A program made the position numbers and the translations under genes. Positions 9,939-14,449 of a DNA stretch of 32,000 nt are shown piece by piece. Position 1 is the stretch's first letter, and every line of letters begins with the position of its first letter. The stretch is from positions 180,001 through 212,000 of the forward strand of contig CP010424.1 in the NCBI GenBank assembly GCA_000830275.1, read 5' to 3'. This DNA is from an archaeon GW2011_AR10 (lineage in GTDB: Archaea > Iainarchaeota > Iainarchaeia > Iainarchaeales > GW2011-AR10). The notes under the pieces were generated by a model, which was given only the letters and a program-made list of their open reading frames with translations, was not told the DNA's origin and did no database searches.

Positions 9939-10039
9939 ACCCCCAAAAAGGAACCTTCCAGAACCAATGAGGGAACGCGGAGGACGTAACAAAGTTACGA
10001 AATCCGACGCGGCAAATGCCCGCCAAAAAAAGGGCAAGA

Positions 10040-10203
10040 CGCGGAGGACGAGATTCGAACTCGCGCTCCTGTGAAGGAACACGCTGACTGATGCAACTGC
10101 CACCCGATTTCTTTCTTTTGGGCAACTTACACTTTTCTTTCTTTTCAAAAGAAAGAAAAGGGCAGTTCCAGGCGTGCGCGTTAGACCACTCCGCCACCCC
10201 CGC
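10040..10203 (-). tRNA. tRNA-Ser(GGA) with an 80-nt intron at the canonical 37/38 position (intron 10086-10165)
   Basis: I folded this by hand. The acceptor is GCGGGGG/CCTCCGC, the D stem GCG/CGC, and the anticodon stem CACGC/GCGTG. The loop is CTGGAA|intron|A. There is a 15-nt variable arm (TCCT/AGGA), T arm GCGAG-TTCGAAT-CTCGT, and discriminator G. A BHB is consistent: C32-G35 pairs with TCAG in the intron, flanked by 3-nt bulges AA|C and TC|A. Confidence 0.85.
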
Positions 10204-10415
10204 AACAACTGTTACGTCAGTTGACACCGTGTGGCATCTTCGATGCCACGTGCTCGGCTCTTGTGAGCCTCGCAACAACTGAAGCCTCAGTTGACTAAAA
10301 CTTTGGCAACTGAATATGTTTAATTATTTCTTTCGCCAAAGTTTTACAAGGCGTGCCATTTTCAATGGCACTGGCTCGCCCTTATGGGTTCGCAACAATT
10401 GAGGTTCCAGTAGTA
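10204..10415 (-). repeat. Modular hairpin-rich leader upstream of tRNA-Ser(GGA): three [CAACTG-N6-CAGTTG hairpin + TTGCG] junctions, two 51-nt structured units, one 11-bp inverted repeat
   Basis: The junction hairpins are at 10206-10223 and 10276-10293, with a degenerate third at about 10396-10413. Unit hairpins are GTGGCATCTTCGATGCCAC (10231-10249) and GTGCCATTTTCAATGGCAC (10353-10371). The inverted repeat AAAACTTTGGC/GCCAAAGTTTT spans 10297-10345. Confidence 0.55.
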
Positions 10416-10443
10416 AAGAAATCAATTGGTAAAAGAATTTAAA

Positions 10444-11091
10444 TTAAAGGTTTTTGAGGGTTTGGACTCGTTTGGGAATGTCACCTGATTTTATTACGTA
10501 AGAGCCCGCTATCAGGATATCGGCTCCGGCTTCAACGCTTTTTTTGCCTGTTTCAGCGTTTATTCCTCCGTCAACCTGTATTTCGCAGTTCAAGCCCTCT
10601 TTGTCTATGGCTTCCCGAAGCAGTTTCACTTTTGAAAGGTTTTTTTCAATGAAGTTTTGGCCTCCGAAGCCTGCTTCAACTGTCATCACTAATGCAAGGT
10701 CAACTTTGGAAAGAAATGGTGAAATTTTTTTTGCAGAAATTTTGTTGTTGACAGCAATTCCGGCTCCCAAACCAAGGCCGCGGATTTCCTTAATTGTTTT
10801 TTTTGGGTTGTTGGAGGTTTCAACGTGGAAAGTTAAGGAATCTGCTCCATAACCCTTTAATTGATTAAAGTATTTTTCCGGCTGCTGAACCATGAGGTGA
10901 ACATCAAAGAAGAGTTTTGTTTTTGGCCTCAGTTTTTTTATTTCTTCAATTGGAACGCCTGAATTCGGAACATACTTGTTGTCCATTACGTCCCATTGAA
11001 TCATTTCTGGCTTTGCTTTCTCCAGCTGCGGAAGCCATTCCTTAACCTTTGAGAAGTCCGCTGAAAGAACTGATACTCCTACCTTTGCCAT
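10444..11091 (-). CDS. rpe: Ribulose-phosphate 3-epimerase
   Basis: SVLSADFSKV...DVMDNKYVPN...FDVHLMV...LTFHVE...GIAVN...LVMTVEAGFGGQNF...VDGGIN is the classic Rpe TIM-barrel motif set. ATG at 11089-11091 is used because the track start at 11094 is TTG. Confidence 0.9.
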   Translation of the reverse strand: MAKVGVSVLSADFSKVKEWLPQLEKAKPEMIQWDVMDNKYVPNSGVPIEEIKKLRPKTKLFFDVHLMVQQPEKYFNQLKGYGADSLTFHVETSNNPKKTIKEIRGLGLGAGIAVNNKISAKKISPFLSKVDLALVMTVEAGFGGQNFIEKNLSKVKLLREAIDKEGLNCEIQVDGGINAETGKKSVEAGADILIAGSYVIKSGDIPKRVQTLKNL

Positions 11092-11329
11092 CAAACCAGC
11101 CTGATTTTTTTAATTGGTTAAATCATCGTTGTACGAAAAATAATAAATAACTTCTTCCTAAAAATAGTTTGATGGAAAGGCAAAAGCAGGGCAAGAAGCG
11201 CAAATAACGCTGCAATAGTTTTACTACAACAACATTTTCGCTTCGCTTCAATGGTGTAGCGTGGAGGGAGAAATCCGAAGTCAGAAAAACCTAGGTTTTT
11301 CCGACACCGTTTCCTCCAAAAATTTTGTT

Positions 11330-11393
11330 AAATTTATAACCCGTTTCTTTGAAACGGGTTGGACGTTTGCTCCCTTCCGAGGAGCAGCTCGGA
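11330..11393. repeat. About 70-nt repeat, copy B: the 3' trailer of tRNA-Ser(UGA), with a perfect 10-bp hairpin plus an AT-rich tail
   Basis: On the minus strand, the tRNA 3' end is followed by TCCGAG-CTGCTC-CTCGGA, then AACCCGTTTC-AAA-GAAACGGGTT, then ATAAATTT. This copy is homologous to 6263-6334. Confidence 0.6.
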
Positions 11394-11591
11394 CGCGGAG
11401 GGAGAGATTCGAACTCCCGCTCGCCGAAGCGAACCGGCTTTCAAGGGAAACTGCGTCACTAATTTTGCCTGTTACGCTAAGCGCTTTGGCTTATCGAGGG
11501 TTTGAGTGAAATGAAAACCCTTTACTCTGCGTTACAGGCGGACACAATTGCCTCTCAAGGCCGGCGCGTTTAACCACTCCGCCACCTCCGC
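11394..11591 (-). tRNA. tRNA-Ser(UGA) with an intron of about 114 nt in the anticodon loop (11440-11553 if canonical 37/38)
   Basis: I folded this by hand. The acceptor is GCGGAGG/CCTCCGC, the D stem GCG/CGC, and the anticodon stem CCGGC/GCCGG. The loop begins CTTGAG. The variable arm is TCGC-TTCG-GCGA, the T arm GGGAG-TTCGAAT-CTCTC, and the discriminator is G. The exact splice position is ambiguous because CTTGA occurs at both junctions. Confidence 0.8.
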
Positions 11592-11738
11592 ATAAACGGA
11601 GAGCTCCGTTTACGAGCTGTACGTGTCCCATCTTCGATGGGACGGTAGTGCTTTCTCCGTTTACAAGGCGTGCCATCTTCAATGGCACTTGCTCGCCCTT
11701 TTAGGCTCGCAAAAAAGCGAAATCCGCCAAAATTTCGC
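11592..11738 (-). repeat. Hairpin-rich leader upstream of tRNA-Ser(UGA), homologous in architecture to 10204-10415
   Basis: The junction hairpin TAAACGGA-GAGC-TCCGTTTA is at 11593-11612. The unit hairpins are GTCCCATCTTCGATGGGAC (11625-11643) and GTGCCATCTTCAATGGCAC (11670-11688). The 51-nt unit 11661-11711 is 45/50 identical to 10345-10394. The inverted repeat GCGAAAT/ATTTCGC spans 11717-11738. Confidence 0.55.
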
Positions 11739-11800
11739 CAAAATAATGGTTTAGTTAAGTTTATATATTACTTTTGTTTAACACTTATTGGCCTTTTCTC

Positions 11801-14449
11801 ATGAAGAATACATTGGTTTTACTTGCATTGCTTTTGGTTTCTTCTCTGGCTTATGCTGGGCCTGTTGAAGATGTTGCGACTGGCTTGAGCAGCCTTTTGT
11901 TCCAAGAAGCTGACAGATACTTTGATGACAGGTTTGACCCTTATGGTGGCGGTCCTTCTGGACCACAGCCTTTTGGCGGGCAAGGGCCTTACTCTGATCC
12001 GTTCAGTGCTCCTAGTGCGGGCGGCCCATTTGGGGGCGGCCCATTTGGTGCACCGCAACAACAGGGAGGTCCTTATGGGCAGCAGCCTTTTGGTGCACAA
12101 CAACCTTCTGGCGGGCAAGGGTTTGGTCCGCAGCAGGGTTTCGGCTTTAATGACTTCGCTCAGGGCAGTGGCCCATCCACTGGCTTTAACACTCCTTACC
12201 TTCCCCCAGAGTTCCCTACATCAATTTCGCCTGAAAAAATTTTGGAGGGAAAAATCAGGAACGTTATTTTCAGCGAACTCGACCCACTTCTAATTGAAGA
12301 GCTTTACCCGGATGAAGAAAGGGCAGTGGATTACCTTTACTCAACTGTTCAGGAAAGCGGTATTCTGGAAATATGCGAACAAATAGAGCTTGAAATAGAA
12401 AGATGCGAGCTTGGAAAGGATTTCTGTGACCAGATTGGAAGCGAAATGAACAACTTTGGCCCACCGCCTGGAGAGGCGCCGCCAGAGGCAATGGAAATAT
12501 TTGAGAACTTGTCATGTGATGAGGAGCCAGATGTTTCAAAGCTCACTGAAATAATGTTTGGCAAAATTAAGGAAAAAATGCAGCAAGAGCAAAAATTCAG
12601 GGATGAACAGCAGTGCTCTTTTAACTGGGAGCGGCAGAAGGATTTCCTTTGCAACAGGTCGCAGGACTTTGGCTACAACCAGGGGCCTTTTGGCGGCGAA
12701 GACTTTGACAGAAGATTTGAGGGACAAAGGGATTTCCCTGAGAGGCCATTCAATGAAGGGCCAAAGTGTACCTCAGAAAATGACTTGGCTTTAAGGGAGG
12801 ACAAGTGCAGGGTTAGAGGAAAAGAATCGTTTAGAGTGAGGGGAAGCGATGGCTGCCCATTTGTTGAGTGCGTTGAAAGCGGCTCAAGGCCGTCAGGCGA
12901 AATTTATAGGGAGGAACAGGTTGCGCGTGAGCCTTACTCTAGCCCAGAACCTTACAATGAACAGGAACCCTTCTATGATAGGCCACAGTGCCAAGACATT
13001 CAACCTCAGTTTGACAGTTGTAGAAGCAGTGGAGGCAACCCAATAACCTATAATTCCAATGGTTGCGACTATTTCCAGGGGTGCGAGTATCCGCAACAAC
13101 CAGTTGGGCAGCCGGTTCAGGAACCAATAGAGCAGCCTCCAGCTGAAGAACCAAGTGGTGGAGAAATAACGACGAGTGCACTTGGCAATGATTTGCTTGT
13201 GGCAAGTTTGCAGGAAGAATCTGTTGAGCCTGCACCCGAGCCTGTTGTTGAGCCTGAACCAATTGTGCAGGAACCAGAATCAGTGCCTGTTGAACAGGAA
13301 CCTGTTTATGATAATGTAGTCCAGTCAGAGCAACCATTTTATGGTGACGGTTTTGACCGCGGATTTGAAAGGCCGCCTTTTGAGCCAGAGCACGTTGAGC
13401 CGTTCCAGCCTTATGGGCCTGAACCTTTTGGCGGCCAATACGGGGGAGGCCAATATGGCGGTGGTCCATCACCCGGCGCTTATGGTGGAGGGCCTTTTGG
13501 TGGTCCGCAAGGCGGAGGACAGAGCCAGGATTGTGACAGAGAAAAATTTATTGCGCAATGCATTGAGTCATCCAAGAAAATGTCTGAAAAGTTTTTCAGC
13601 GAGGAAAGGATCAAGAAGCAAATTGGATTTGAAATGAAGAGGGTTGCGAAAGAATACCAGTTTTTCTGCAAGCAGGCAGAGTTCGGGCAAAAGCAATGCG
13701 TCAGGCATGTTGAGAGATCGTGCACGTTCATTGATGCGCAGCTTAAAACTTGCAGAACTTTAACAACAGAGGACAAAGTGAGGGAAATAGTGAGAAGAAT
13801 TGTGCAGAACATTTTCAAGTGGAAGAAATTGCAGGAACTGAAAGAGGAAAAAGGCTTTGAGTCAAAAATTTTGGATGCAGCTGAAGGCTTGAGCGAGGAC
13901 TCATACTACTTGGAAGGCGATTTGTCATCTGTTGTTTCAGTAACCAGCTCAGAACTGGTAGATGCTGCTGCAACAGTAGAGGAATTGAACGAATCTGAAA
14001 GAAACAAAGACATTTTGTATCATTTTACAAAAGTGTTCGGCTTCCAAAAAGAAAATGAAAGGGGTGAAGCAAACAAGCTGTCAAAGCAGATTGAAAAAAT
14101 TGAGGCAACAATTGATGCACTTGAAGTCGTAGTCGAGCAAGTTGACGATGATATGCTGAGGAGAAGAATTTCCCAAGTGATTGATGAACTTGAAAAAGAA
14201 AAAAGTTCGCTTGAATCTGTTTATGACAACAAATTAAGCGGTGCCGGCGGCTTGTTTGGTGGAGTCAGCGAGGAAGAAGTTAAATCAGGCGAAGCACTTG
14301 TCTGCGAAACCGGAAGAGCCGACTGCGATGGATTGTCAGTGAACGGCTGCGAATCAAGCTTGGAAAGAGATTACGAGAACTGCGGTGCATGCGGCATAGT
14401 GTGCAATGAAAATGAGGCATGCGTTAACAGCGTGTGCACTTCAATATAA
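11801..14449 (+). CDS. Large secreted protein: G/P/Q/F-rich low-complexity regions, acidic Cys-containing core, coiled-coil region and 8-Cys C-terminal module
   Basis: ATG at 11801 gives the signal peptide MKNTLVLLALLLVSSLAYA (the track start at 11774 is TTG). PFGG/PYGG-type repeats lie at 11936-12193 and 13424-13527. The C-terminus is CETGRADCDGLSVNGCESSLERDYENCGACGIVCNENEACVNSVC. There is no C-terminal TM helix. Confidence 0.8.
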   Translation: MKNTLVLLALLLVSSLAYAGPVEDVATGLSSLLFQEADRYFDDRFDPYGGGPSGPQPFGGQGPYSDPFSAPSAGGPFGGGPFGAPQQQGGPYGQQPFGAQQPSGGQGFGPQQGFGFNDFAQGSGPSTGFNTPYLPPEFPTSISPEKILEGKIRNVIFSELDPLLIEELYPDEERAVDYLYSTVQESGILEICEQIELEIERCELGKDFCDQIGSEMNNFGPPPGEAPPEAMEIFENLSCDEEPDVSKLTEIMFGKIKEKMQQEQKFRDEQQCSFNWERQKDFLCNRSQDFGYNQGPFGGEDFDRRFEGQRDFPERPFNEGPKCTSENDLALREDKCRVRGKESFRVRGSDGCPFVECVESGSRPSGEIYREEQVAREPYSSPEPYNEQEPFYDRPQCQDIQPQFDSCRSSGGNPITYNSNGCDYFQGCEYPQQPVGQPVQEPIEQPPAEEPSGGEITTSALGNDLLVASLQEESVEPAPEPVVEPEPIVQEPESVPVEQEPVYDNVVQSEQPFYGDGFDRGFERPPFEPEHVEPFQPYGPEPFGGQYGGGQYGGGPSPGAYGGGPFGGPQGGGQSQDCDREKFIAQCIESSKKMSEKFFSEERIKKQIGFEMKRVAKEYQFFCKQAEFGQKQCVRHVERSCTFIDAQLKTCRTLTTEDKVREIVRRIVQNIFKWKKLQELKEEKGFESKILDAAEGLSEDSYYLEGDLSSVVSVTSSELVDAAATVEELNESERNKDILYHFTKVFGFQKENERGEANKLSKQIEKIEATIDALEVVVEQVDDDMLRRRISQVIDELEKEKSSLESVYDNKLSGAGGLFGGVSEEEVKSGEALVCETGRADCDGLSVNGCESSLERDYENCGACGIVCNENEACVNSVCTSI

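Follow-up and report, generated by a model that had tools for sequence, protein, structure and literature searches.

A dispersed family of pseudoknot-bearing repeats at the edges of stable-RNA genes in the archaeon GW2011_AR10

Introduction

Bacterial genomes harbor several families of short, non-coding, multi-copy extragenic repeats, among them the REP/BIME/REPIN sequences that go with RAYT proteins, the Correia elements of Neisseria and the Rickettsia palindromic elements (RPEs), some copies of which have landed inside functional RNA genes. REP-like repeats keep their fold by compensatory change, occur singly and in tandem arrays, are strand-biased and persist for long in a lineage. Here we describe an archaeal repeat family that shares these traits. 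We found it in a stretch of 32,000 nucleotides (nt) from the genome of archaeon GW2011_AR10 (contig CP010424.1, positions 180,001 to 212,000; hereafter the window), in the leaders of two tRNA-Ser genes.

tRNA genes are a preferred landing place of mobile DNA, and this is common ground between archaeal tRNA introns and the units described here. Archaeal tRNA genes disrupted by mobile DNA have been reported (Sugahara et al. 2012, PMC3293823), and in Thermoproteales the sharing of similar intron sequences among tRNAs was interpreted as intron transposition, according to the summary of Fujishima et al. (2010) given in PMC4033280. Like those introns and split-tRNA leaders, our units are similar short sequences found at different tRNAs of one order, in introns as well as leaders. 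IS200/IS605 elements and their miniature derivatives transpose as single strands on the lagging-strand template (PMC6006769), and share with the units subterminal hairpins read as single-stranded DNA, a strand bias relative to skew and stems that are Watson-Crick only. H-type pseudoknots of similar size occur in preQ1-I/II and SAM-II riboswitches and in the ToxI repeats of type III toxin-antitoxin systems; the likeness extends to possible Shine-Dalgarno sequestration before open reading frames (ORFs) and, for ToxI, to pseudoknots in tandem. In compact eukaryotic genomes, Ty3 of yeast and TRE5/TRE3 of Dictyostelium are autonomous retroelements that settle next to tRNA genes by reading RNA polymerase III factors. 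They too lie on both sides of tRNA genes, a "safe haven" in a gene-dense genome.

A covarying fold in two tRNA-Ser leaders and beyond

Both tRNA-Ser genes of the window lie on the minus strand, so that positions 11592-11738 form the 5' flank of tRNA-Ser(UGA). A sequence-only reading had noted that part of this flank matches the leader of the neighboring tRNA-Ser gene at 45 of 50 positions, and a repeat search agrees, aligning 10343-10398 with 11660-11715 at 89% over 56 nt (50/56). The four 7-base-pair hairpins on which that reading rested are perfectly paired: GTGCCAT-N5-ATGGCAC at 10353-10371 and again at 11670-11688, GTGGCAT/ATGCCAC at 10231-10249 and GTCCCAT/ATGGGAC at 11625-11643. Three versions of a small first hairpin (GGCTC/GAGCC, CCC/GGG and GCC/GGC) were recovered as well, together with the inverted repeat GCGAAAT/ATTTCGC (11717-11723 and 11732-11738) and a stable hairpin, TAAACGGAGAGCTCCGTTTA (11593-11612), that ends 1 nt before the tRNA +1 (G1 at 11591). 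This last hairpin is the helix that we call S2. A crossing helix, S1, had gone unnoticed; in this leader it pairs AGCU (11618-11615) with AGCU (11605-11602) and turns the structure into a pseudoknot or a switch.

The resemblance of the two leaders had been taken as a sign of selection on a tRNA-Ser leader, a conclusion that a wider search does not support. About 36 copies exist genome-wide, at other tRNAs, at RNase P RNA and at protein genes, often in antisense, and the orthologous tRNA-Ser(UGA) leaders of three relatives (G001, G003 and G005) lack the unit. The two tRNA-Ser leaders are alike because both hold members of a dispersed repeat family.

A complete unit of the main type (type A) is about 65 nt long, is read on the minus strand in the window and has three parts: hairpin 1, hairpin 2 and a pseudoknot module. 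Hairpin 1 consists of UU-GCGA, a variable stem-loop and GAGC, with tandem G.A pairs bracketing the stem, and is followed by 2 nt; its GCGA...GAGC frame is almost invariant across our alignments. Hairpin 2 has 7-9 base pairs, mostly GUGNCAU...AUGNCAC, and is capped by a further covarying closing pair with a GNA triloop (C-GAA-G, U-GAA-A, C-GCA-G or U-GUA-A). The pseudoknot module runs in the order S1a (4 nt), a loop of 2-3 nt, S2a (6 nt), S1b (4 nt), a loop of 2 nt and S2b (6 nt). Pairing of S1a with S1b and of S2a with S2b gives an H-type pseudoknot or, alternatively, two mutually exclusive hairpins. A second subfamily, type B, is marked by the linker (U)AUUACC/UACUACC; the genome has about 12 copies of it, of which five are near-identical. 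Terminal inverted repeats are absent from type A, and type B has only AAACGGAG/CUCCGUUU.

Copies were gathered with a covariance model (R1) that was built from 10 copies with S1 left out. It replaced a descriptor search for hairpin plus pseudoknot, which was too unspecific (about 4000 pseudoknot matches, 727 of them with the hairpin), and it recovers the window copies at E values of 1e-16 to 5e-11. Among 10 copies of this genome, 96% of cells are paired and 16 of 26 pairs show two-sided changes. A larger alignment comprises 44 copies from 20 genomes (the closed GW2011_AR10 genome, G000, and 19 relatives). In it, 94.5% of cells pair, as against 29-46% when partners are slid by 1-3 columns; all 20 tested pairs carry two-sided changes (176 cells), and none of 500 shuffles reaches the observed values. 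The covariation suspected from the window copies is therefore borne out in this and related genomes. By helix, hairpin 2 is 98% paired with two-sided changes at all 7 pairs, and S2 is 95.5% paired with two-sided changes at 6 of 6. S1 is 88% paired and changes on both sides at 4 of 4 pairs although the search model did not impose it; its variants include ACCU/AGGU, GCCG/CGGC, ACGU/ACGU, AAAA/UUUU, ACAU/AUGU and GCUC/GAGC. All four helices covary, and the conserved thing is the fold including the pseudoknot, not the sequence. Because compensatory changes hold the stems, it is a folded single strand, of RNA or DNA, that is conserved and not a sequence-specific operator, as had been argued from the window alone.

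An Rfam 15 scan returned the tRNA alone at gathering score and nothing credible at E up to 10 within 10000-11900. By eye we saw no C/D boxes, and on informal inspection no conserved core of a self-cleaving ribozyme, C/D box or K-turn. The 146-nt leader folds better than its shuffles (z = -5.2 as RNA, -5.8 as DNA and -5.6 for the opposite strand); with all three values between about -5.2 and -5.8, folding energy is uninformative about the strand of action.

Units adjoin mature RNA ends and start codons

The closed genome (1.24 Mb, 43% GC, 99.9% complete) has 36 matches to R1 in about 24 clusters, and every copy lies between genes, in an intron or in an RNA gene. In 16 of 24 clusters, no more than 0-3 nt separate the edge of a stable-RNA gene from the last unit, which turns its pseudoknot end towards it. 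Six of these clusters stand in sense before tRNA genes (four for Ser and one each for Trp and Ile), with a constant spacing of 1-3 nt to the tRNA +1. Nine adjoin the 3' ends of tRNAs, to which they are antisense (two Ala, three Gly, Ile, Glu, Arg and Pro, the last reached via a degenerate unit), and one adjoins the 3' end of RNase P RNA, also in antisense. Further arrays end at or just before protein start codons (682k, 699k, 705k, 1074k, 1224k and 1159k), a type-B unit lies antisense at the 5' splice site within the tRNA-Gly(CCC) intron, and the trp leader hairpins at 351k match the model and belong to the family. TATA-like boxes were seen by eye about 25 nt upstream of several arrays.

Some single loci deserve mention. 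In the units that precede ORFs at 682.9k, 699.1k, 705.1k, 1074.7k and 1224.9k, S1b is GAGGU or GAGGC and S1a is ACCUC, which resembles the 16S anti-Shine-Dalgarno sequence; S1b lies 8 nt from the AUG in four of them and about 13 nt at 1224.9k. Such units may both supply and mask the ribosome-binding site. At 122860-123222 of the genome, a tRNA-Ile gene has units on either side, all pointing inward. Being unrelated and non-complementary in sequence, these units cannot form a leader-trailer helix, and in tRNA-Ser(UGA) only 7 nt pair between the flanks; we therefore discarded an rRNA-like processing stem. A promoter-element reading was likewise set aside, since on inspection the AT-rich GUAAAC at -23 to -17 is replaced by GC-rich stems in many copies. 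At 392653-394363 (L072), ARAGORN predicts a tRNA from a tRNA-Ser-like 5' half (394363) and a 3' half at a distance of 1.6 kb. The first 23 nt of the 5' half are identical to tRNA-Ser(GGA), two units stand before it and ORFs lie between the halves; possible readings are a disrupted tRNA gene, a split one and a pseudo-half.

Patchy distribution and signatures of insertion

The family has matches in 17 of 41 related genomes (E <= 0.001) and in 37 of 151 genomes of a phylum sample (E <= 1e-4), all within one order, with 0 to about 36 copies per genome. Distribution is patchy: 0 of 15, 0 of 12 and 0 of 17 genomes in three families carry it, 14 of 20 in another, and genera are mixed. Many of the genomes without matches are at least 90% complete; given model sensitivity and assembly gaps, these zeros mean "not found" and not "absent". 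Relatives have their units in the same kinds of place: in front of tRNAs in sense, behind tRNAs in antisense, and also in front of ORFs. Long introns of tRNA-Trp (G016) and tRNA-Asp (G014) carry a unit in sense at their 3' end. The tRNA-Ser pair is syntenic across the family of GW2011_AR10, and its occupancy varies: the tRNA-Ser(UGA) leader holds units in G000 and G002 and none in G001, G003 and G005, G002 and G005 being of the same genus. The hairpin adjoining the +1 of tRNA-Ser(GGA) is present in all four family members examined. A repeat family with a conserved structure and an association with gene edges is turning over between relatives.

Recent spread is visible within the genome. Units at 1159.2k and 1215.9k differ at 1 position in 72 nt, and the five type-B cores differ by only 1-2 nt over about 62 nt in unrelated flanks. 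A hairpin of about 50 nt (AAAACUUUGGC...GCCAAAGUUUU) occupies loop 1 of the pseudoknot at three loci (window 10295-10345 on the minus strand, 394.4k and 1074.7k). Its copies are near-identical, while the S1 pairs around them differ (GCCU/AGGC, GCCG/CGGC and ACCG/CGGU), and the hairpin has the appearance of another mini-element, nested in the units and landing at the same spot each time.

In one relative (G022), RNase P RNA is interrupted by a unit at model position 257/258 with CAGAAGGCG (9 nt) on either side. This RNA (L020, 1475-1894, minus strand) has an insertion of about 87 nt in its P15 region, made up of one unit and the 9-nt duplication, and lies about 680 nt downstream of the 3' end of 23S rRNA. 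Single units in G003 and G016 (L030, L017 and L033) have direct repeats of 13-21 nt on both flanks, which contain a ribosome-binding site plus ATG, a pre-tRNA-Trp junction or the last 14 nt of tRNA-Leu. Overall, flanking repeats of at least 12 nt were found for 7 of 45 units and for 2 of 300 mismatched flank-pair controls. We saw no fixed insertion target in the unit flanks, and in particular no fixed tetranucleotide.

Two further observations concern repeats of tRNA ends. Just 5' of tRNA-Ser(UGA) in G001 (L041), TTAATGCAATAAATGCGGA is repeated in tandem (19 nt). The first 5 nt of the tRNA fall within the repeat, and no unit lies between its copies; possible origins are a target that was duplicated but is empty, the footprint of an excision, and slippage. 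In the window, positions 11260-11282 (plus-strand letters CGTGGAGGGAGAAATCCGAAGTC) match the final 23 nt of tRNA-Ser(UGA) at 83%, a degenerate copy about 134 nt downstream of the gene, paralleled by an 11-nt copy of the 3' end of tRNA-Ser(GGA) at 9976-9986. The copy at 11260-11282 resembles a scar that an earlier insertion left at the 3' end of the tRNA.

Pairing type, orientation and strand bias

The stems are almost purely Watson-Crick. Among the 540 cells of hairpin 2 and S2, 520 are Watson-Crick pairs, 3 are G.U and 5 are A.C, and the 44-copy alignment has 12 one-sided against 176 two-sided changes. Watson-Crick-only pairing is expected if pairing must hold in DNA or on both strands. Orientation of the units is unrelated to the neighboring gene (upstream neighbors are divergent in 12 of 22 clusters). 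The sense strand coincides with the locally G-rich strand in 18-20 of 23 clusters of G000, a bias that its tRNA genes do not share, and so it does for 7-8 of 8 matches in G033: in G033:C9, where skew is positive, each of 7 matches follows the G-rich strand, and the eighth, past the skew switch, is flipped. Pairing type, orientation and strand bias lead us to lean towards a constraint at the DNA level or on both strands. GNA triloops and tandem G.A pairs are strand-specific, which argues that one strand is active, as single-stranded DNA or RNA, and against a purely symmetric DNA reading.

We also considered whether the strand bias reflects replichores. The cdc6/orc1-like genes (840.6k and 1128.0k) lie away from the extremes of the cumulative GC skew (minimum at about 130-250k, maximum at about 1010k), and GC skew in G000 follows the majority gene direction; a "lagging-strand template" is therefore not established, and we rejected this explanation of the bias.

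Architecture of the tRNA-Ser(UGA) leader

The 146 nt before tRNA-Ser(UGA) are a two-unit array, in which a type-B unit is nested in the pseudoknot of a type-A unit. The features of this leader and of the sister locus are as follows.

11394..11591, minus strand: tRNA-Ser(UGA) with a 114-nt intron; G1 at 11591, 2 nt (AU) past the pseudoknot (ARAGORN with introns, and reading of the acceptor stem)
11761..11770, minus strand: TATA-like box TAATATATAA, some 25-30 nt before the leader's first structured element (read from the sequence)
11717..11738, minus strand: first leader hairpin, GCGAAAU-N8-AUUUCGC, present in the minimum-free-energy fold
11691..11710, minus strand: type-A hairpin 1, GC-GA-GCC-loop-GGC-GA-GC, stem bracketed by tandem G.A pairs, inner stem covarying
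11670..11688, minus strand: type-A hairpin 2, GUGCCAU-U-GAA-G-AUGGCAC, 7-8 base pairs, GAA triloop
11655..11669, minus strand: 5' half of the type-A pseudoknot, S1a GCCU, loop UGU, S2a AAACGG, then AG (S1a to S2a, 11669-11657)
11625..11654, minus strand: type-B unit, linker AAAGCACUACC and hairpin GUCCCAUC-GAA-GAUGGGAC (the hairpin itself 11643-11625)
11594..11624, minus strand: type-B pseudoknot module, ACGUAC, S1a AGCU (11618-11615), C, GU, S2a AAACGG (11611-11606), S1b AGCU (11605-11602), CU, S2b CCGUUU (11599-11594)
10204..10275, minus strand: sister locus, complete type-A unit adjoining tRNA-Ser(GGA), 70.5 bits and E 1e-16 with the covariance model
10296..10395, minus strand: sister locus, type-A unit with the extra hairpin of about 50 nt in pseudoknot loop 1 (insert at about 10295-10345)

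ARAGORN places the start of tRNA-Ser(UGA) at 11592, 1 nt too early with respect to the acceptor G1. The TATA-like box is the likely promoter of a transcript that comprises the leader and the tRNA. The first leader hairpin resembles the stem-2 hairpin that precedes every unit in arrays. After S2a, the 3' half of the type-A pseudoknot is absent here and the nested type-B unit stands in its place. In the minimum-free-energy fold the distal AAACGGAG pairs with CUCCGUUU (11601-11594), enclosing the type-B hairpins.

A probable mobile repeat and its alternatives

In our reading, to which we give a probability of roughly 60%, the family is a structured repeat that is not autonomous. It would insert or duplicate where stable-RNA genes end and begin and at gene starts, and would be tolerated in these places. 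The reading draws on the near-identity of distant copies, the presence or absence of units at orthologous tRNA-Ser(UGA) leaders, the insertion in a relative's RNase P RNA, Watson-Crick-only pairing and the occurrence of both orientations relative to host genes. These observations suggest that the element moves as DNA, that the sense strand is its active form and that it has no role specific to tRNA-Ser. Propagation would need a folded single strand made up of the tandem-G.A hairpin, the GNA-triloop hairpin and the pseudoknot of 4+6 base pairs. The element would lodge pseudoknot end first, at either edge of a stable-RNA gene, at start codons or in tRNA introns. There it would be harmless, being transcribed with the leader, trailer or intron and then removed by ordinary maturation enzymes, and this removal would be why units are tolerated at RNA-gene edges. 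The closed genome has RNase P RNA, so ordinary leader removal is available.

Several points weigh against this reading. The closed genome contains no Y1 transposase (IS200/RAYT; PF01797), TnpB, reverse transcriptase or multi-copy ORF; its paralogue pairs are only membrane proteins, KaiC-like ATPases and glycosyltransferases. Among 41 genomes, Y1 transposase and TnpB show no co-occurrence with units: Y1 is missing from the unit-rich G003, G014, G016, G020 and G033, and 3-5 copies occur in the unit-free G006, G017 and G030. IS200/IS605, RAYT, TnpB and reverse transcriptase were therefore rejected as movers, being absent or uncorrelated with units. The flanking repeats vary in length (9-21 nt) and are not seen around most G000 copies, and those at L019, L035 and perhaps L017 could be better read as tandem duplications of unit plus junction, which makes this line of evidence suggestive and not clean. 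Units occur at the same tRNA edge across genera (tRNA-Ser(GGA) in G000, G001 and G002; the 3' end of tRNA-Ala in G000 and G001). Both this and the upkeep, across an order, of a complex fold with strand-specific loops would also fit a host function, and there is no account of how a DNA process finds mature-RNA edges within 0-3 nt.

Such a function could belong to a host RNA module, a functional cassette whose task would be to mark or shield the boundary to the RNA that follows. An endonuclease might recognize it as a platform and cut 1-3 nt past the pseudoknot to make tRNA 5' ends and leaderless or short-leader mRNAs; it might also be an autonomous fold that prevents mispairing between flank and tRNA, or, before ORFs, a pseudoknot that hides the Shine-Dalgarno sequence. 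We regard this as possible but doubtful. Strong covariation of all four helices, including the crossing helix outside the search model, speaks for it, as do the strand-specific GNA loops and GCGA...GAGC frame with their implication of one functional strand, the constant spacing of 1-3 nt to the tRNA +1, and the occupation of the same tRNA edge in different genera. The GAGGU/GAGGC of S1b near the AUG and the anti-Shine-Dalgarno-like S1a before five ORFs fit it too, and so do the TATA-like boxes seen by eye about 25 nt upstream of several arrays. However, 10 of the 16 edge-adjoining clusters are antisense to the RNA gene that they touch, G.U pairs are as rare as A.C mismatches, and copies are dispersed, near-identical and even nested. 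Close relatives also lack units in their tRNA-Ser(UGA) leaders, as do most of the order's genomes altogether, special 5' processing is unneeded where RNase P RNA is present, and no Rfam family matches.

A previously unknown kind of element that homes to the mature ends of stable RNAs and to start codons is a further reading, which we consider unlikely and put forward only tentatively. It would be either a transposase-less, structure-guided insertion or a genuine processing cassette. In the first case, a host enzyme that reads folded single strands might move the element; in the second, the pseudoknot might guide a nuclease to cut 1-3 nt downstream and so define tRNA ends and short-leader mRNAs in reduced archaea.

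A host element acting at the DNA level is quite improbable. Its sense strand would fold whenever replication or transcription left it single-stranded, and would be of use to the chromosome in that form. Such an element could be a polar template-strand signal beside heavily transcribed stable-RNA genes, for priming, for the management of fork or transcription conflicts or for protein loading. Watson-Crick-only pairing is what it predicts, and the hairpins are of the GCGAAGC / C-GNA-G type, motifs that form unusually stable DNA mini-hairpins. The strong G-rich-strand bias in two genomes, independent of tRNA orientation, and the way in which units point at an RNA gene from either side would suit it as well. 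Yet copy number ranges from 0 to about 36 among close relatives in a patchy manner, some units lie within introns, within RNase P RNA or at ORF starts, and a replication reading of the bias is unproven while the two cdc6/orc1 genes lie off the skew extremes and skew tracks gene direction. We know of no host DNA-level system of such a kind in archaea.

A regulatory leader specific to tRNA-Ser, in which a structured RNA at each of the two loci would sense or control the expression of serine tRNAs, is very improbable: although four of the six G000 tRNA genes with a sense 5' unit are tRNA-Ser and a hairpin adjoins the +1 of tRNA-Ser(GGA) in every family member examined (4/4), the distribution of units contradicts it, for they flank at least 7 other tRNA species, RNase P RNA and ORFs and are missing at tRNA-Ser(UGA) of G001, G003 and G005. 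That one tRNA-Ser leader was recently copied by segmental duplication and then decayed neutrally, its hairpins being due to chance, is the outcome that the sequence-only reading had named as one that would undo it. This is refuted despite two tRNA-Ser genes 1.3 kb apart that match at 50 of 56 nt, because copies differ mainly by paired, compensating changes, slid partners pair at 29-46% against 94.5% for true ones and the family is present in 37 other genomes.

Comparison with described systems

We found no published description of this repeat element in the literature. Several described systems come close, and each differs from it. Archaeal tRNA introns have a bulge-helix-bulge and lie in sense inside the tRNA, whereas our units stand mostly outside the mature tRNA, many in antisense, and also at ORF starts and in RNase P RNA. 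Compared with the ends of IS200/IS605, the units are without a TnpA/TnpB partner and show no fixed tetranucleotide target, and some have flanking repeats of 9-21 nt, which IS200/IS605 does not make. A classical miniature inverted-repeat transposable element would have terminal inverted repeats and a target-site duplication of fixed length that matches a DDE transposon family; type A has no terminal inverted repeat, the length of the flanking repeats varies and there is no multi-copy ORF. Unlike Ty3 and TRE5/TRE3, the element measures 65 nt, resides in a genome without reverse transcriptase and adjoins the mature ends themselves. The riboswitch and ToxI pseudoknots differ in that our units have no Rfam match, no conserved ligand-pocket sequence and no toxin gene downstream, and come as dozens of copies in unrelated contexts and both orientations.

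When genomes of these archaea are annotated, any structured "leader" or "spacer" and any riboswitch-like pseudoknot close to a tRNA or a gene start should be checked against the unit family first. The units may explain the origin of long tRNA leaders, long introns and disrupted tRNA genes in this group. Were the host RNA module the correct explanation, they would constitute a new RNA-processing signal; as mobile repeats, they would offer a handle on how selfish DNA survives in 1-Mb genomes.

The nearest relatives in kind are the REP-like repeats of bacteria. Here the host is an archaeon, and a three-part fold with a pseudoknot replaces the single palindrome. In our alignments the feet of the unit are GCGA...GAGC and GUG...CAC in place of the GTAG/CGTC tag of REP/REPIN; no RAYT/Y1 gene accompanies it in the closed genome or co-occurs with it across 41 genomes; and units lie 0-3 nt from stable-RNA gene edges with variable flanking repeats. 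If our reading is right, tiny structured repeats have persisted for long as a family in DPANN (Iainarchaeota-like) archaea, an archaeal counterpart of REP that is set apart from the bacterial REP/REPIN by its pseudoknot, by having no recognizable transposase and by its adjacency to tRNA ends.

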